Shown here: positions 1,082 through 47,454 of the stretch, piece by piece
How positions within the stretch are numbered: the stretch's first letter is position 1
Layout of the letters: each line of letters starts with the position of its first letter
Sequence record: ON862890.1
Length of the DNA: 64,000 bases
Reading direction: 5' to 3' (one strand)
Source of the DNA: Escherichia phage A221
The notes under the pieces: model-generated
Databases searched by the model: none
What the model was told of the DNA's origin: nothing
What the model saw: only the letters and a program-made list of their open reading frames with translations
Made by a program: the position numbers and the translations under genes

Positions 1082-1101
1082 ATTTTAAATTTATTCAATA
1101 A

Positions 1102-1130
1102 ACGGGGTTTAATTCTTCAATAAACCCCGT
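1102..1130 (+). other. GC-rich hairpin (9-bp stem ACGGGGTTT/AAACCCCGT) overlapping promoter
   Basis: Inverted repeat read directly; no clear T-run so terminator function uncertain. Confidence 0.45.
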
Positions 1131-1135
1131 ATACT
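1107..1135 (+). promoter_or_regulatory. sigma70-like early promoter (GTTTAA-N17-TATACT)
   Basis: Matches the recurring TTTACT-N17-TATACT family; followed by conserved leader element. Confidence 0.4.
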
Positions 1136-1282
1136 TCATTCCATAAGCAGCACAACACTGACTTGAAATGAAGGAACTATCACCACTCTCGTTACAAAGT
1201 AACATTGCAGCAATTTGTTCTAAACCTTTGAACAGGGTATGTTAACCACATACCCTATCCCCTACAAATAGAGGACTTTATC

Positions 1283-1603
1283 ATGGCTAACAGCATCCCG
1301 ATTTTAGAAGCGGTCGTAAAAGAGAACCCTCGTGCGCGCAAACCACGTCGCCGCCTGACCACCAAGCTGGATCTTCTGAAACAGAAGTTCGGCGACCACA
1401 GTGTGTTCACTCGCATTCGAAATGCAATAAAGGAAGGGCGAACTGAGCTGGAGCTATATCGACCGAACGGTTCGACACGCGCGTATCAGACCACTGACGG
1501 CTTACTGGAACTGATCCGCCTGAGCGGGATGACGATCGAACCTCGTTCGTCAGGTACTCCTCTGTGCTCCCTGTACGTAATCGGCAATCTTGGGGCGCTG
1601 TGA
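1283..1603 (+). CDS. hypothetical protein (106 aa, basic N-terminus)
   Basis: ORF track; AGAGGAC-TTTATC-ATG initiation region. Confidence 0.5.
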   Translation: MANSIPILEAVVKENPRARKPRRRLTTKLDLLKQKFGDHSVFTRIRNAIKEGRTELELYRPNGSTRAYQTTDGLLELIRLSGMTIEPRSSGTPLCSLYVIGNLGAL

Positions 1604-6982: not shown

Positions 6983-7350
6983 TCTTGATTCACATAGGCG
7001 GGGGTGGCCTCGCCTTCATCAGTTACTACACCGAACAATTTGTCCAGAGAAGCCAGACATTGTGAGTTCAGGTGTTCACTGATCGTATCCTTCAGCATTT
7101 GTTCGCTACCCAATTTGAATGGCAGAACCTTCGCTTCGATGCCGTTTTCAAACGTCACAACGCCAACATACAGACCAACTTTCAGGCCTGTCATCAAGCC
7201 AAGGGGGACAAATCGCGGCTCCGATGGTAAGTGCTTGTCTGACGCCAGCTGTGTCAGATAAACTGGGGTGCCTGTGATAAATTGACCTGTGGTGAGGTTG
7301 GCGTCTGGCTTACTACACCCGACTGCGTATAATCCTACGAACTGTTTCAT
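6979..7350 (-). CDS. hypothetical small protein (123 aa), possible lipoprotein
   Basis: Minus ORF more protein-like than overlapping plus ORF 7004-7261; N-terminal MKQFVGLYAVGC. Confidence 0.4.
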   Translation of the reverse strand: MKQFVGLYAVGCSKPDANLTTGQFITGTPVYLTQLASDKHLPSEPRFVPLGLMTGLKVGLYVGVVTFENGIEAKVLPFKLGSEQMLKDTISEHLNSQCLASLDKLFGVVTDEGEATPAYVNQD

Positions 7351-7541
7351 ATATTACTCTCGTGTGTTGGTTAACATGACATACATATTATTTCGCGTGC
7401 ATGTTTAGACCAAATAAATTATTTTTGCTGTTGAATAAAAACTGCTTTCTTGTTGAACAATGGCGTGGTATTATACGAGTTGTGAGCGTTAGCGAACAAC
7501 GAGTATTTGTTTTATGAGCGAAGCGAATAGGATTAATAAAG

Positions 7542-7598
7542 ATTATTATCTTTAATAAAGGTTATTATCTTTAATAAAGGTTATTATCTTTAATAAAG
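7542..7598. repeat. 3 tandem copies of a 19-bp unit GTTATTATCTTTAATAAAG with palindromic core CTTTAATAAAG
   Basis: Read directly; unit starts at 7543, 7562, 7581 in the 380-bp AT-rich region upstream of gp45. Confidence 0.8.
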
Positions 7599-7731
7599 TC
7601 CATAAATGCCGAAGGCATTTATTAATAACGCGTAGCGCAATTTGCCACTTGTTCTATAAGCAAAACACAGCGATACTAGATTGCGTCAAACATGACTTGA
7701 ACCCCCCACTATATTTTGAGGATACATACAA

Positions 7732-8400
7732 ATGCAAGAGATCACTCTCTCCGAACGTACACTTCAGTTGCTGGCCAACTTTGAGACCATCAACCCATCT
7801 ATCGTTCTGACACCGGGCAAGATGCTGCGCAGTATTAATGATTCTTCTACTGTGATCGCCGTGGCGCAGATCGAAGAAGACTTCCCGTTTGAGTTCCCGA
7901 TTCTGGACCTGACCAAACTTCTGGCCATCCAGCGCCTACCTTCCTTCAAAGGTGCCAAAGCCGAATTCCATCAGGACTACATCCTGTTGAAAGGCGAAAG
8001 TTCTCAGCTGCAATTCTGGCGTTCTGCTAAAGAACTCACTGTTGTTCCGGCTGACACCATTGAACTACCGTCTGTCGACTTTGAAGCGATCATCACTCCA
8101 GAGAAGATGAAAGAACTGACCCGCGCCTGTTCTACCCTCGGACACAAGACTGTGCGCCTGGTTGCTCAGGGTGGCAAAACTCGCCTGGTTGCAACCACCA
8201 CTACCCTGGACAACTCCAACAACTACACTGTTGAGCTGGGTGAAACCGCGCTGCCGGACTTCGTAATGCCGCTGGATGTTGCCAACCTGAAAATGATCGA
8301 AGGCAACTACACTCTGCGTGCATGTGCTGATCTACAGATGGTGAACTTCCAATCATCCGACGCGACGATCAATTACTTCGTCGGCGCACAGATTGAGTAA
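7732..8400 (+). CDS. 45: sliding clamp (gp45 family)
   Basis: 222 aa; N-terminal LLANFETINPSIVL and C-terminal ANLKMIEGNYTL resemble T4 gp45; sits before gp44/gp62. Confidence 0.85.
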   Translation: MQEITLSERTLQLLANFETINPSIVLTPGKMLRSINDSSTVIAVAQIEEDFPFEFPILDLTKLLAIQRLPSFKGAKAEFHQDYILLKGESSQLQFWRSAKELTVVPADTIELPSVDFEAIITPEKMKELTRACSTLGHKTVRLVAQGGKTRLVATTTTLDNSNNYTVELGETALPDFVMPLDVANLKMIEGNYTLRACADLQMVNFQSSDATINYFVGAQIE

Positions 8401-9927: not shown

Positions 9928-10392
9928 ATGGCGCGTAATACGCTAGACATATTGAATATTTCAGCAGTCAACGATGAGGCCAGCATCGTTGATTGTATGG
10001 TTGAAGTTCAATTGAACCAAGATCGGCCAGGTATATTCCTGGGGATCAAGGAAACACTGAGTCGAATTGGGGTAAACACGCGCCAAGAGCCGAATACTCT
10101 GTATCAGACTTGCCATATTCTTCATAAGTGTGGCAAGTATTATATCGTCCACTTTAAGCATCTATTTATGCTGGACGGGCATTACAACGGATTTAACCGC
10201 GAAGATGTCCTGAGGATGAACCGAATCATCAAACTGCTGGAGCAGTGGAACATGGTGAAGGTCATTCATCCTGAACAGGTCACCGAAGCAGCCGATATGT
10301 CTCGCATTAAAGTGGTTAAACACGATCAGGTTCCTGAATGGAAACTGGTTCCAAAATACATCATCCGGCCTACGAAGGCAAAAAGCGAATAA
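9928..10392 (+). CDS. regA: RegA translational repressor
   Basis: LYQTCHILHKCGKYYIVHFKHL and C-terminal EWKLVPKYIIRP match T4 RegA; AAGGGG RBS; alternative start at 9997. Confidence 0.8.
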   Translation: MARNTLDILNISAVNDEASIVDCMVEVQLNQDRPGIFLGIKETLSRIGVNTRQEPNTLYQTCHILHKCGKYYIVHFKHLFMLDGHYNGFNREDVLRMNRIIKLLEQWNMVKVIHPEQVTEAADMSRIKVVKHDQVPEWKLVPKYIIRPTKAKSE

Positions 10393-11349: not shown

Positions 11350-12570
11350 ATGAAAGATAAAGCCCTAGACGTCCCGTACTGCGGTGTCCGTGAAGAAAAG
11401 ATAAAGTCGGCCAAACCGGTTCTCAGTCCGACCCATACCAGCCTGTCTTACGAATGGATGCGCGATCGTTATCAGATCCACGTCAAGAAGGACGTCCAGC
11501 GCCTTCCTGCTCCTTGGACTGATAATCCCATATTACGGCAGGTCAAGTTCTGTAACGTCCGGAGAGAGCACGACAGGCAGTCTCTCAACCTGATCAACAA
11601 CATCGTCAACAACGATGCTCTGGGTATGGCCGACAAGATGTTCAACTGCGTGATGTTTCGCATGTTCAACCTCTGGGATCCAATCCAGGCTATCGGCGGC
11701 GCGATGACGATCAAAGAATTCGCCGAGATCAACCTCGATGCAACCCGCGAACGACTTCAGAAGTTCGAGGCCGACGGCGGTAAGGTATTCACCAATGCCT
11801 TCAACACGGGCGGCCTGAAGCAATGCCTGGCTTTCCCTGAGCTGGTTGTCAACCACAAGGAGCAGCGCTTCGGTGGGATGATGGTGAATCTGATCTGTAA
11901 AGATGGTTCAACCCAGAACATGGATTATAAAGAAGCCAAGGCGATAGCCGAAGCAGAACCGGACTTCTACACCATCGAAGGTTGGGAACCGTACATGCCA
12001 ATGCGTGTCATCCGCTCCCTGAAGGCATTCGTCAACAAGTATCCAAATTACTTCCATGACCTGCTGCGCCTTGGTACTCCTTTGGAAGTATACCAGCGCA
12101 TGTATGACGACATCGAAGGGCTTGGTCCATTCCTGGCCTATCAGATCTGGGTAGACTTCACTTACATTCCTGAATATCCTTTCAGTGAGAACCACTTCAC
12201 GGTTGCTGGACCAGGCTGTCGCGCAGGGATCGACCTGATGTTCCAGGACAAAGATGGCATGACGCATGAAGAATGCATCTTCTGGTTGCGGGACAATCAG
12301 GACGCGGTTTATGGCCCTCTTGGGTATAACAGGGAAGAATTTTGGTCTGCGGAAGAGCCTTGGGATCAGTGTATGAATGTGATGAGCATCGAGAATATGG
12401 CATGTGAATTGTCGAAATATACTCGTTGTGTAGAGGCCATACAGCAAGGTAAAAAACCGCGCGGGAAGGTTGGATATGACGGCGGTGGGGAATACAAAAA
12501 GCGCTGTGATGAAGTCGTGCTCAAACGTGGTTCCGTCAATTTGCTGGACCGTTTGAAGAAACCTGAATAA
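11350..12570 (+). CDS. hypothetical protein (406 aa)
   Basis: ORF track; AAGAGGA RBS; no family recognised. Confidence 0.55.
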   Translation: MKDKALDVPYCGVREEKIKSAKPVLSPTHTSLSYEWMRDRYQIHVKKDVQRLPAPWTDNPILRQVKFCNVRREHDRQSLNLINNIVNNDALGMADKMFNCVMFRMFNLWDPIQAIGGAMTIKEFAEINLDATRERLQKFEADGGKVFTNAFNTGGLKQCLAFPELVVNHKEQRFGGMMVNLICKDGSTQNMDYKEAKAIAEAEPDFYTIEGWEPYMPMRVIRSLKAFVNKYPNYFHDLLRLGTPLEVYQRMYDDIEGLGPFLAYQIWVDFTYIPEYPFSENHFTVAGPGCRAGIDLMFQDKDGMTHEECIFWLRDNQDAVYGPLGYNREEFWSAEEPWDQCMNVMSIENMACELSKYTRCVEAIQQGKKPRGKVGYDGGGEYKKRCDEVVLKRGSVNLLDRLKKPE

Positions 12571-12684
12571 AGATTCCCTTTACTTCGTTCTTCAATAACT
12601 CAATCCAGCGTATATTGACCTCACTTAAACGAAGCGCCCTGGCAAACGGGGCGCACATTTGAACTGAAACAGGAAGATTACATC

Positions 12685-19034: not shown

Positions 19035-19063
19035 TTTACTTCCTCTAAGGAATGTCCTATTAT
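19035..19063 (+). promoter_or_regulatory. sigma70-like early promoter (TTTACT-N17-TATTAT)
   Basis: Exact 17-bp spacing; directly downstream of terminator. Confidence 0.45.
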
Positions 19064-19114
19064 TCAATAACTGGCGAACGATGGGTTCACCGGGTTGAAA
19101 GGTAAGATTATATC

Positions 19115-19354
19115 ATGAAGAACAAAATGGTCGAAACTTCAGTAGAGATTGATCGCAATTGGGGATTGCTCCGCGCTAAAGGGTTCCGTCGTGTGTATGC
19201 GACCAAAGAAGTCTACGCACAGCGCCGTGACGTTATCATCAGCAAGAAAGGCAAAGAGTGGGTTGCTGAAGAAGTTGATGTCGAGACAGGCATCGTAGGA
19301 AAGGTAAAGGCCAAGGCCGTGATCCTCTTCGCTCTTCTGAAGCACATCAGTTAA
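19115..19354 (+). CDS. hypothetical protein (79 aa)
   Basis: TTGAAAGGTAAGATTATATC-ATG initiation motif. Confidence 0.45.
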   Translation: MKNKMVETSVEIDRNWGLLRAKGFRRVYATKEVYAQRRDVIISKKGKEWVAEEVDVETGIVGKVKAKAVILFALLKHIS

Positions 19355-19413
19355 TTCTATAACTTTGGGCGGGGTATGATTACCCCGTCTATTTGAAACC
19401 AAGAGACTATATC

Positions 19414-19788
19414 ATGAAAAAGTTAATCCTCGCTGTTGCCCTGCTGGGCGCTTCCTTTGCTGCTGTTTCCGCCCCTCCTGTCATCACCGGAGTGTCTACC
19501 AACGGTGTTTATGCTTTCAAGGCGTATGGCCAAGACCTCGTTCTGTATAAGAACGGGAAGATGATTGAGCGCTGCGTATCAGACGACGTGAATCGTGGGA
19601 TCGACAATCAGGGTAGCCCATACGTCCTGGACATCTATTCCTGCTCCAACGGGACGAAGTCCTTTGGCGTCAAGACCTTTGGCAACGTCGCCGACGGTGG
19701 CTGGGGCTTCATGTTCGAAACCCGCAACCACCACCCGGTCAAGACCATGCAAGAAGAGTTCTTGATCTCTGTCGGGGGTACGTTATGA
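19414..19788 (+). CDS. secreted protein (signal peptide)
   Basis: N-terminal MKKLILAVALLGASFAAVSA; conserved AGAGACTATATC-ATG motif. Confidence 0.5.
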   Translation: MKKLILAVALLGASFAAVSAPPVITGVSTNGVYAFKAYGQDLVLYKNGKMIERCVSDDVNRGIDNQGSPYVLDIYSCSNGTKSFGVKTFGNVADGGWGFMFETRNHHPVKTMQEEFLISVGGTL

Positions 19789-23562: not shown

Positions 23563-23618
23563 TCAATAACCTCGGGCGGCTTATCATAAAGCTGCCCTTT
23601 CATTTGAGTGACTATATC

Positions 23619-24281
23619 ATGGAAAAACTTTATTCTATTATCGTCGGTCCTGATCCTGACGGATTATTCTTCGCCCCGTTGTCTTATATTGCCCACGCCC
23701 GTATCGGTAGCTATTACGCATATTGCACACGTGGCCACGACGGTTCCAATATCCTCCATTATAGCCGCCTGAACGATTTCCTGGCACTTCAACCAGAAGA
23801 TGTTGTGCTGGCGCGTCGCGTGTTCATCGACTTCAACGCGATGCACAACAACGAAATCGACGCTCGCTATCATGCCATGCGTTCTATGGAAGGGGGAGAC
23901 TGCATTTATCGTATCGACCATTTTAGTGAGTTTACCGAATGTATTGATTGGTTTATCTCTGATAAAGTGATGGGTGAAAGAATCGTCACAACTCCGTGGG
24001 CGCATGCGGAACAACTTCGTGTGTCTACCGATGCGTACAAAGAAGTCGAAAATCTGTGCAACAAGTTCCGCATCTCGGTGGCCTGTAATCAAGACCTGGG
24101 CGAAGAGATACAATGGACAGCTGAGTCTCCTCATTTCAGTGGCCTGGTGATGACGGCCGAAACCCGTTCCCGTGCTGTTGTCCAGTTAGTACTCTGGGCG
24201 TTCTACCAGCGCACCCCGTTCTCATACATGGGGCAGAAAGAGATTGATGAACTCCTGAAGTCTCATGCGGTGGAGGTGTAA
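23619..24281 (+). CDS. hypothetical protein (220 aa)
   Basis: Internal ATG carrying GTGACTATATC-ATG motif. Confidence 0.5.
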   Translation: MEKLYSIIVGPDPDGLFFAPLSYIAHARIGSYYAYCTRGHDGSNILHYSRLNDFLALQPEDVVLARRVFIDFNAMHNNEIDARYHAMRSMEGGDCIYRIDHFSEFTECIDWFISDKVMGERIVTTPWAHAEQLRVSTDAYKEVENLCNKFRISVACNQDLGEEIQWTAESPHFSGLVMTAETRSRAVVQLVLWAFYQRTPFSYMGQKEIDELLKSHAVEV

Positions 24282-34662: not shown

Positions 34663-34675
34663 AAATAATTCAATA

Positions 34676-34700
34676 AAAGGGGCTTTCGCCCCTTTACTTC
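34676..34700 (+). terminator. rho-independent terminator
   Basis: Stem AAAGGGGC/GCCCCTTT, loop TTTC; T-run overlaps next promoter. Confidence 0.6.
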
Positions 34701-34721
34701 TTCAATATCCTTCCCTATACT
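34693..34721 (+). promoter_or_regulatory. sigma70-like early promoter (TTTACT-N17-TATACT)
   Basis: Exact 17-bp spacing; conserved leader follows. Confidence 0.5.
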
Positions 34722-34769
34722 TCATTCCATAAGCAGTACGACACCGACTTGAATAGCAGGAACTATATC

Positions 34770-35045
34770 ATGAAAATTATCCTCGACGCATATATCCGCC
34801 ACGGTCAGAAATACCTGATGGCCAAGGTTTACGACGGCGAAGAATTGATCCACGCCCAGACCGCCCCAGCTGCCCAGCTGCGCGAAATCATGTCACGCGA
34901 CTTCCCTGGCGTTGAAATGGTAGAGCCTGCCAACCAGGCTGAAGTAGACAAAGAGTGGGAGCGCGAATGGAGTCCAGCGGCTATCGCTCGGGCTGAAAAG
35001 AATTGGTCTAACCGCGAAAACGCAAACCGCCCTTTCCGCCGTTAA
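34770..35045 (+). CDS. hypothetical protein (91 aa)
   Basis: CAGGAACTATATC-ATG motif. Confidence 0.5.
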   Translation: MKIILDAYIRHGQKYLMAKVYDGEELIHAQTAPAAQLREIMSRDFPGVEMVEPANQAEVDKEWEREWSPAAIARAEKNWSNRENANRPFRR

Positions 35046-35067
35046 TTTGAACCGAAGGAACTATATC

Positions 35068-35403
35068 ATGACACAACTCAAGAACTTCACCGCCGATGAC
35101 ATGTTTGCCTTCCAGGGTGCTGAGCACTTTGCTGACGGCTCCGTACCTCGCATCTACTACTTCTCCGACGAAGAAATGGAAGATTTCTTCTCCCTGATGG
35201 AAAAGGACTACGAACCAGACGACTTCGTTTATATCATCCATCACGCTGAAGGACTGACATTGGGTTGGACGGCCAACAACGAACCAGAAGAAGTAAACTT
35301 TCCTGAAGGTATCATGTCAGAGCGCGTCGAATATCTACTGGAAGCTCTGGACCCCCACACCCTCCCGCTCTGGGCGATGTCTGTAGCCCAAGTTCAAAAA
35401 TAA
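35068..35403 (+). CDS. hypothetical acidic protein (111 aa)
   Basis: AAGGAACTATATC-ATG motif. Confidence 0.5.
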   Translation: MTQLKNFTADDMFAFQGAEHFADGSVPRIYYFSDEEMEDFFSLMEKDYEPDDFVYIIHHAEGLTLGWTANNEPEEVNFPEGIMSERVEYLLEALDPHTLPLWAMSVAQVQK

Positions 35404-46893: not shown

Positions 46894-46920
46894 AAAGCCC
46901 CTCATTGAGGGGCTTTACTT
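46894..46920 (+). terminator. rho-independent terminator
   Basis: 10-bp stem AAAGCCCCTC/GAGGGGCTTT, 3-nt loop; T-run overlaps next promoter. Confidence 0.65.
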
Positions 46921-46942
46921 CTATAATCCCTGCGCTTATACT
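46914..46942 (+). promoter_or_regulatory. sigma70-like early promoter (TTTACT-N17-TATACT)
   Basis: Exact 17-bp spacing. Confidence 0.5.
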
Positions 46943-46992
46943 TCCCAGTAATTCATTGGCATTCGCCACAAATTGAAAGCGGGAACTATATC

Positions 46993-47454
46993 ATGACAAA
47001 CAAAGTACTCACCAACCCACTGCACAACTTCGGTTACATTCAACTCCCTCTGGTGATCGACACCCTGTACGCCGACGACAAAGAAGAGATCTGCTGGTCA
47101 CCCACCGCACTGATTGAACGCGAAATCTTCAAGTCTGTTGTTGATGTCATGTTCCGTATCGGTCGCAATGGACCTCTGGTCTACCTCGGCAAGGTGACTG
47201 AGTTGAAGACAAGCCACAACGAACGCTTCCTTCGTATCGATACAACGGGGTGCTCTCATCAGGACTTCAACACATTGCGCAATTATGTTCTGGTCAACCG
47301 CCCGGTCAGTCAACACCGCCCGTATCTGACTTCAATGCACATCGACAATTTCATCACCGACGTGCACCTCCGCGCCGAAACCCTCCATGAAGAGGAAACA
47401 GGCCGAGCTATCGACACAGTCTTAAATATGGTTGTGATCACCCTGGCGGAGTAG
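46993..47454 (+). CDS. hypothetical protein (153 aa)
   Basis: CGGGAACTATATC-ATG motif. Confidence 0.5.
   Translation: MTNKVLTNPLHNFGYIQLPLVIDTLYADDKEEICWSPTALIEREIFKSVVDVMFRIGRNGPLVYLGKVTELKTSHNERFLRIDTTGCSHQDFNTLRNYVLVNRPVSQHRPYLTSMHIDNFITDVHLRAETLHEEETGRAIDTVLNMVVITLAE

Follow-up and report, generated by a model that had tools for sequence, protein, structure and literature searches.

Probable paralogous cassettes of hairpin, promoter and leader bordering gene-swap slots in Ackermannviridae phages

The 64,000-nucleotide (nt) stretch of Escherichia phage A221 analysed here (ON862890.1; hereafter the window) comes from an Agtrevirus-like phage of the family Ackermannviridae, subfamily Aglimvirinae. 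It is 98.7% identical to Escherichia phage vB_EcoM-RPN242 over the 6 kb compared, and its other near relatives are PC3, YX22, AV101 and Shigella phage Ag3. The region is transcribed rightward and carries genes for replication, recombination and nucleotide metabolism (uvsY, uvsW, gp45, gp44/62, regA, gp55, gp46/47, primase and nrdAB); our subject is a short non-coding element repeated within it, together with the small genes that stand behind each copy. Copy 1 lies directly downstream of a DUF7446 gene (845-1081), and the first gene now behind it is gene X (1283-1603, plus strand), which encodes a protein of 106 amino acids (aa) in phrog_4663, a family with no assigned function, and whose N-terminal 25-35 residues are mosaic among relatives. 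Copy 2 lies 33.6 kb away; its upstream neighbour is a DUF7270 gene, the stop codon of which opens the element, and it is followed directly by an open reading frame (ORF) of 91 aa (34770-35045, plus strand; phrog_5704).

A preliminary description of the window had reported an element of about 50 nt at 1130-1179 and again at 34716-34766, and had proposed either a duplicated or recombined leader cassette or a regulatory 5' untranslated region. The duplication is real: the ungapped repeat, 1127-1180 against 34713-34766, covers 54 nt at 87% identity, with no fall to background under computational alignment. Its 21-nt core, TATACTTCATTCCATAAGCAG, occurs at exactly two sites in the window, 1130 and 34716, both on the plus strand; these are still the only sites when up to three mismatches are tolerated, and dinucleotide-preserving shuffles yielded 0.00 matches. 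If one gap is allowed, the similarity extends upstream past the -35 hexamer to a common motif, TTCAATAA, at 1094 and 34669. The two copies share an ancestry beyond anything that promoter and Shine-Dalgarno (SD) consensus sequences would demand.

Each copy contains a hairpin, a sigma-70-like promoter sequence, a 5' leader and a ribosome-binding region, so that 'duplicated promoter-leader cassette' was an apt name. Copy 1 (1082-1180, plus strand) runs from the DUF7446 stop codon to an orphan translation-start region. Its hairpin, ACGGGGTTTA/ATTCTTCAA/TAAACCCCGT (1102-1130; -14.2 kcal/mol, z = -3.9), takes in both the -35 hexamer and the promoter spacer; the putative promoter, recognised by consensus only (1108-1135), consists of TTTAAT (1108-1113), a 16-nt spacer and TATACT (1130-1135). 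The -35 sequence is TTTAAT in the window and in PC3 and TTTACT in the other relatives fetched. Transcription is predicted to start near A1143, giving a leader (1143-1180) with the SD sequence AAGGA (1171-1175) and the start region GGAACTAT (1173-1180), from which the ATG has been deleted. Copy 2 (34663-34769, plus strand) has the same parts in the same order: TTCAATAA (34669-34676) within an A/T-rich stretch, the hairpin AAAGGGGC/TTTC/GCCCCTTT (34676-34695; -13.5 kcal/mol, z = -4.4), and a putative promoter (34693-34721) made up of TTTACT (34693-34698), a 17-nt spacer and TATACT (34716-34721). From a predicted start near A34729, a leader of about 41 nt passes the SD sequence AGGAA (34758-34762) and ends in AGGAACTATATC-ATG, abutting the start codon at 34770 as had been described. 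A diverged third copy (46897-46995, plus strand) comprises the hairpin GCCCCTCATTGAGGGGC, TTTACT (46914), a 17-nt spacer and TATACT (46937); its mid-leader is unlike that of copies 1 and 2 and is followed by TTGAAAGCGGGAACTATATCATG, and it keeps the TTGAA...GGAACTATATCATG ending. This third copy had escaped the preliminary description, as had the hairpin and -35 hexamer immediately upstream of each repeat, the orphan start region at 1173-1180, and a repetition of the translation-start region at 35046-35070.

We infer that the cassette is a compact control unit for stopping, restarting and translating. The TTTACT-17-TATACT of copy 2 was accepted by a sigma-70 promoter scan with 9 of 12 matches. 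Across genera, the -10 hexamer varies only at positions 4 and 5 (TATACT, TATAAT, TATTAT), with T1, A2, T3 and T6 fixed, a pattern that a working sigma-70 -10 element would tolerate. TTTAC-N-TAnnnT patterns number seven on the gene strand and one on the other, against 0.7 expected from shuffles, and most of the TTTAC-type patterns stand behind hairpins. The stem of copy 2, GGGGC/GCCCC, is followed by TTTACTTCTTC and is called by a terminator scan on the minus strand only; among copy 2 orthologues the loop varies and the stem is invariant. The hairpin probably stops or attenuates transcription arriving from upstream, and the promoter probably serves the host sigma-70 RNA polymerase and would therefore be an early promoter. 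Further TTTACT-N16-18-TAnnnT sites were seen at 19035, 21587, 40599 and 57949 (plus strand) and within 12570-12620, several of them immediately behind a hairpin and several with TTCAATAA; shortly before the promoter-like site at 12591, an additional gene of about 400 nt is present in CBA120 and Klebsiella phage May.

The cassette is a property of the family. BLAST with either copy matched 272-276 phage records, nearly all of them Ackermannviridae and typically at two places per genome, from phages of Salmonella, Klebsiella, Escherichia, Dickeya, Shigella, Serratia and Enterobacter, and about 270 genomes, belonging to Agtrevirus, Limestonevirus, Kuttervirus and Taipeivirus, have both loci occupied. 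Scanning IMG/VR with a loose pattern (CATAAGCAGNACNAC...GAA) returned almost solely unrelated contigs and was uninformative. When 17 copies from 10 genomes of non-Klebsiella genera were aligned, they grouped by copy and not by genome, with a mean identity of 0.90 among copy 1 sequences, 0.85 among copy 2 sequences and 0.75 across the two sets, and copy-specific bases (CAGCACAACACTGACTCTGAAATGA in copy 1, CAGTACGACACCAACTTGAAAAGCA in copy 2) are kept across the genera aligned. Judged by this sharing of both loci among genera and by the retention of copy-specific differences, copies 1 and 2 are ancient paralogues, and the duplication is neither recent nor peculiar to A221. Klebsiella phage RCIP0012 (L062 in our set; Taipeivirus-like) has at 1570-1626 a copy 1 that combines a copy-2-type mid-leader, CAGTACGACACCAAC, with a copy-1-type ending, CTCTGAAATGAAGG, a mixture that points either to conversion between paralogues or to an ancestral state.

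This non-coding cassette is better conserved than the genes around it. The copy 1 element (1082-1179) is 95-98% identical to the window in relatives and 87% in AV101, which deviates in the A/T-rich stretch before the hairpin; in the same relatives the upstream DUF7446 gene is 70-84% identical, the genes downstream of copy 1 are 72-91% identical, and the spacer before gene X (1215-1282) is 88-99% identical. The copy 2 element ranges from 82 to 98%, its flanks from 70 to 96%. An identity of at least 90% was reached by 196 of 276 records over positions 1060-1180, against 11 of 264 over the surrounding 6 kb.

Between copy 1 and the ATG at 1283 there are 102 nt, in agreement with the 'about 100' extra nucleotides reported earlier, and the hairpin noted within them (1234-1256; AGGGTATGT/TAACC/ACATACCCT) is also present, with nine base pairs and z = -3.9 for the 71-nt stretch around it. 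The stretch is no part of the leader's design. In Ag3, copy 1 continues as GGAACTAT-ATCATG, followed by a 93-aa ORF and its TAA; relative to this arrangement, the window has suffered three losses: 50 nt have gone from between the direct repeats GGAACTAT and GGTACTAT, and with them the start codon and a further 16 codons; a single nucleotide is missing; and 191 nt have been deleted between two ATTTGTT repeats. What is left of the ORF, which is intact in Ag3 and LIMEstone1, is a relic of 39 nt (1181-1219, plus strand; approximately codons 18-30, HSRYKVTLQQFV). The remainder is the right-hand spacer of the slot (1213-1282, plus strand), with the hairpin and then the SD sequence AGAGGA (1270-1275), and the same spacer and hairpin stand behind the intact ORFs of Ag3, AV101 and LIMEstone1. 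By this alignment, the extra stretch is the scar of a lost 93-aa ORF joined to the ordinary conserved spacer of gene X. PC3 and RPN242 appear to share the scar, since PC3 is identical to the window over 1060-1180 and has no gene annotated in the same gap of about 200 nt, and RPN242 aligns to the first 6 kb of the window in one piece. The scar lineage also has the weakened -35 hexamer and a 1-nt deletion in the leader, which might, speculatively, reflect relaxed constraint after gene loss. An upstream ORF of 25 codons opens at ATG 1168, within the composite leader; having no SD sequence and being a by-product of the deletion, it is not considered a gene.

The place of the missing ORF is a slot in which, among relatives, at least seven different contents are found. 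The window and PC3 have no ORF there (RPN242 aligning as above); Ag3 and LIMEstone1 have the 93-aa ORF, AV101 one of 109 aa, L004 a pair of 105 and 109 aa, and L014 a pair of 88 and 113 aa; L005, L009, L011 and L012 have a 98-aa ORF, CBA120, L010 and L016 a 154-aa ORF, and L018 and L019 a 145-aa ORF (L numbers denote other genomes in our set). None of the slot ORFs has a Pfam domain, and when variable and flanking ORFs alike were scanned against Pfam and PHROG, the matches were to function-unassigned families only, with no nuclease or integrase to hint at homing or site-specific recombination. The transitions are sharp: between CBA120 and L005, identity is 100% as far as the leader's end, all relationship is lost for about 650 nt from the ATG onwards, and similarity then returns. 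Conversely, L005 and L009 have flanks that are 60-75% identical, yet share a patch from -60 to +600 that is 92-100% identical and spans the cassette, the ORF, the spacer and the beginning of gene X, its left edge falling inside the cassette; on this contrast in identity, the patch has moved between lineages. The 154-aa slot protein of CBA120 (orf176; L021) looks like a fusion, its N-terminal part matching the 105-aa and 145-aa ORFs (…ISVWAFNNF…IFKKNG…RKL…) and its C-terminal 35 residues matching the 109-aa ORF (…DGLCDE(S/T)FTYDEYCDQCQDL), the 105-aa and 109-aa sequences being those of L004; domains, and not whole ORFs only, would therefore be shuffled in this slot.

The other copies border slots as well. 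Behind copy 2, the window, L017 and Klebsiella phage May have the 91-aa ORF and then one of 111 aa; CBA120 has the 91-aa ORF without the 111-aa ORF, and the 91-aa ORF is absent from AV101, LIMEstone1, L007 and L020. The second translation-start region, TTTGAACCGAAGGAACTATATCATG (35046-35070, plus strand), repeats 34748-34772, and the two bracket the 91-aa ORF as a direct repeat unit of 298 nt. Behind copy 3, CBA120 is longer by 226 nt (orf096), the insertion lying precisely at the ATG. Relative to CBA120 and May, replacement or indel breakpoints fall at or beside the ATGs of cassettes or start regions at 19418, 35046 and 46992; among them, a replacement relative to CBA120 sets in exactly at the start codon of the conserved start region 19392-19416. 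In the gene preceded by the start region 23607-23621, a replacement sets in at 23654, after roughly the first 30 nt. The suggestion of a recombined cassette thus holds in that the copies form the borders of gene-swap slots, but not in the sense first meant.

A translation-start motif, TTGAA-N5-9-(A)GGAACTATATC-ATG, is common to many otherwise unrelated genes, with sites at 371-395, 19095-19117, 19392-19416, 23607-23621, 34748-34772, 35046-35070 and 46973-46995, and replacements or indels relative to CBA120 and May begin at, or no more than about 30 nt from, several of its ATGs. The ORF at 372-836, two genes upstream of copy 1, is unrelated to CBA120 orf179 (about 40% identity, as by chance) and has conserved flanks; it is a further replacement slot, beginning at the conserved start region 371-395.

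We consider it probable that the copies are ancient paralogues of a compact expression cassette that borders gene-swap slots, one diverged third copy being present. On this account the hairpin would halt or attenuate transcription coming from upstream, the host sigma-70 polymerase would restart at TATACT early in infection, and the unstructured C/A-rich leader with its fixed SD spacing would ensure that whatever ORF stands at the ATG is translated efficiently. Since it is nearly invariant across the family, the cassette could act as the left homology arm, and the spacer before gene X as the right, for the exchange of small accessory genes between co-infecting relatives. Short repeats within the cassette (the start region) and other microhomologies would promote deletions: slot 1 of the window has lost an Ag3-type 93-aa ORF by two microhomology deletions, leaving gene X behind a composite leader of 140 nt, and slot 2 retains a 91-aa ORF that other relatives have lost.

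Several points weigh against this account. If illegitimate recombination struck at random and selection kept the working genomes, breakpoints would be expected at gene borders too, and their coincidence with the cassette is therefore no proof that homology drives the swaps and does not merely outlast them. Copy 1 in the window fails a simple promoter scan, its weakened -35 TTTAAT having 3 of 6 matches, and its hairpin lacks a clear U-tract, being followed by ATACTTCATT. Only three closely related copies are present here, against about 50 of the promoter-early stem-loop (PeSL) cassettes of T4-type phages in RB49 and phi1. The literature searched holds no start, termination or expression data for any Ackermannviridae phage. 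Finally, an invariant mid-leader of 25 nt and the spacer TTCTTCAATAA exceed the needs of a plain sigma-70 promoter and SD sequence; some further function, possibly that of a regulator site, is probably missing from the cassette account.

That function might be the binding of a phage regulator, either a RegA-type protein or a transcription factor, to the leader and possibly the spacer, with co-regulation of the two or three operons, and this binding site as the main reason for conservation. The roughly 25 nt between predicted start and SD sequence (CATAAGCAG-YAC-RAC-AC...) are common to both paralogues in all genera and persist in part in Serratia phage Kevin (Miltonvirus), the most distant relative fetched, which keeps TTTACTTCTTCAATAAAC...TATTAT...CATAAAGCAG...CTTGAAATGAAGGAACTAC. 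The spacers of sigma-70 promoters are usually not conserved, unlike TTCTTCAATAA, and the window encodes a RegA homologue of the T4 translational repressor type (9928-10392, plus strand; PF01818, E = 2e-34), for which the conserved start regions are candidate RNA targets. The sites of T4 RegA, however, are A/U-rich and lie at the AUG, not in a C/A-rich leader upstream; copy 3 and other TTTACT promoters lack the shared mid-leader; and no operator-like symmetry or repeat was seen in the leader by eye, no dedicated search having been run. In favour of a regulator, the authors of the CBA120 genome state that MotA and AsiA are absent and early and middle control not understood (PMC3184105). A regulator site in the leader is a candidate only, and as the principal cause of conservation we regard it as possible but unlikely; it is compatible with the expression cassette and not exclusive of it. 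More tentatively still, the leader CATAAGCAG-YAC-RAC... and the -35/spacer block TTTACTTCTTCAATAA may together be the recognition element of a control step specific to Ackermannviridae phages, which could redirect or time the host RNA polymerase or act on the 5' end of the mRNA; if so, the cassette, besides anchoring recombination, would be the earliest defined example of such a promoter class.

A T4-type middle promoter, dependent on MotA, or a promoter-primed replication origin like T4 oriF near uvsY, is very improbable. The depositors of LIMEstone1 annotate a terminator and a 'putative middle promoter' at copy 2, and uvsY and uvsW follow copy 1 at a distance of about 3 kb within the replication and recombination block. 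The LIMEstone1 promoters, however, were called by pattern similarity to T4 alone and the feature coordinates are off the motifs; there is no MotA box (TGCTT near -30) upstream of the -10 hexamer, where a -35-like TTTACT stands at the right spacing instead; and ViI-like phages lack MotA and AsiA (PMC3184105). Copy 1 is not adjacent to uvsY, and the GC-skew profile, examined for an origin signal, has no inflection at either copy. In the LIMEstone1 record (HE600015; L003), the terminator, minus_35 and minus_10 features deposited at 1533-1573 miss the actual hairpin (1507-1526) and TATACT (1547-1552), and a shift of about 21 nt would bring the annotated -10 onto TATACT.

Conserved non-coding sequence upstream of genes, together with a genuine hairpin (1234-1256) in the composite leader of copy 1, might also suggest a structured cis-regulatory RNA (a riboswitch, attenuator or thermosensor) or the source of a small RNA, in line with the regulatory 5' untranslated region first envisaged. 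Shuffled versions of the copy 2 leader, however, fold better than the leader itself (z = +0.97), and for the leader proper of copy 1 z is -0.5; across 11 homologous leaders the predicted consensus fold contains no pairs, and a search of both regions against Rfam gave a few weak, chance-level matches far below gathering scores. Because there is neither a credible Rfam match nor a single consensus pair, the leader, about 40 nt long and C/A-rich, is not a structured RNA, and the hairpin at 1234-1256 belongs to the spacer of the next gene, so that this explanation is largely refuted and we give it hardly any weight. Least credible of all is the view that the repeat arose recently inside this genome, by duplication or gene conversion, or is an artefact of assembly. 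The 87% identity of 54 nt at such distant sites and the copy-2-type bases of RCIP0012 copy 1 (occasional conversion, or an ancestral state kept) might favour it, but it is refuted by the orthologue comparison.

Elsewhere in the window, 7533-7598 contains three and a half tandem units of 19 nt (TTAATAAAGRTTATTATCT) followed by a hairpin, AAATGCCGAAGGCATTT. The units lie inside a divergent non-coding region of 380 nt (7350-7732), with a minus-strand ORF on one side and the sliding-clamp gene gp45 (ATG 7733) on the other, and could be operator or iteron-like protein-binding repeats; CBA120 has an unannotated gap of about 700 nt at the corresponding place.

Three known systems invite comparison. 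In mosaic (lambdoid) phages, conserved boundary or linker sequences stand at module junctions, as in the modular model of Susskind and Botstein; here too, short conserved non-coding borders flank swappable modules, with sharp transitions from near-identity to no similarity, but the Ackermannviridae linker is a full unit of putative terminator, promoter and leader, 95-98% conserved across genera. The early promoters of T4 have a -35 sequence GTTTAC rather than TTGACA, an A-rich upstream region and a -10 sequence TATAAT. The cassettes resemble them in their TTTACT, in TTCAATAAA within the A/T-rich upstream stretch, in a TATA(C/A)T at 16-17 nt and in their position in front of pre-replicative genes; they differ in that the spacer is conserved and the start sites are predicted only. 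Alt and ModA, by which early promoters are modulated in T4, are also missing from the present phages (PMC3184105).

Transcriptional control in the Ackermannviridae is essentially undescribed, and ViI, CBA120, Ag3 and LIMEstone are widely used in biocontrol and engineering; early promoters could not be identified in CBA120 (PMC3184105), and a 2024 review of the family never mentions promoters. The cassette supplies a concrete and testable consensus for an early promoter and leader. Its slot, flanked by a conserved pair of anchors and tolerant of any small gene, would offer a ready-made site for the insertion of payloads by homologous recombination, and accessory or anti-defence genes could be sought there.

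The closest parallel is provided by the PeSL cassettes of the T4-type phages RB49/phi1, T4/PST and KVP40/nt-1 (Arbiol et al. 2010, PMC2839356; Comeau et al. 2014, PMC4122927). These occur in many copies per genome, with a concentration in hyperplastic regions, and are intergenic units with an A+T-rich upstream stop, a sigma-70-like early promoter, a G+C-rich stem-loop and the SD sequence and start of a small function-unassigned ORF; the stem-loop lies upstream of, overlapping or inside the promoter, there being five subclasses, and the cassettes mediate modular shuffling (PMC2839356, PMC4122927). The Ackermannviridae cassette has the same set of parts, with properly spaced promoter hexamers in an intergenic region. 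Its hairpins are stable and G+C-rich, with z about -4, and adjoin or overlap the promoter, the stem-loop of copy 2 lying before or overlapping the -35 hexamer and that of copy 1 spanning -35 to -10, two arrangements that are both among the five subclasses. An SD sequence and the start of a small downstream ORF follow, the ATG having been lost from copy 1 of the window, and indel and replacement borders between close relatives fall at the cassette. The differences are that the family is the Ackermannviridae and not the Straboviridae; that the 64 kb here hold three homologous copies and four further intergenic TTTAC-type patterns, with BLAST matches at two or three places per genome, against about 50 PeSLs per genome in RB49 and phi1; that homology here runs through a 40-nt leader invariant across genera; and that PeSLs were characterised by promoter and terminator assays and mini-circles, the present cassette being known from its sequence and likened to them by anatomy. 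No link between PeSLs and the Ackermannviridae was found in the literature searched. Of five PeSL features compared, four are recognisable in the cassette, which is, on this likeness, a PeSL-like unit of putative terminator, probable early promoter and leader, of a known kind, documented here in the Ackermannviridae; the idea of regulatory cassettes that drive modular shuffling would thereby extend beyond the T4-type phages.

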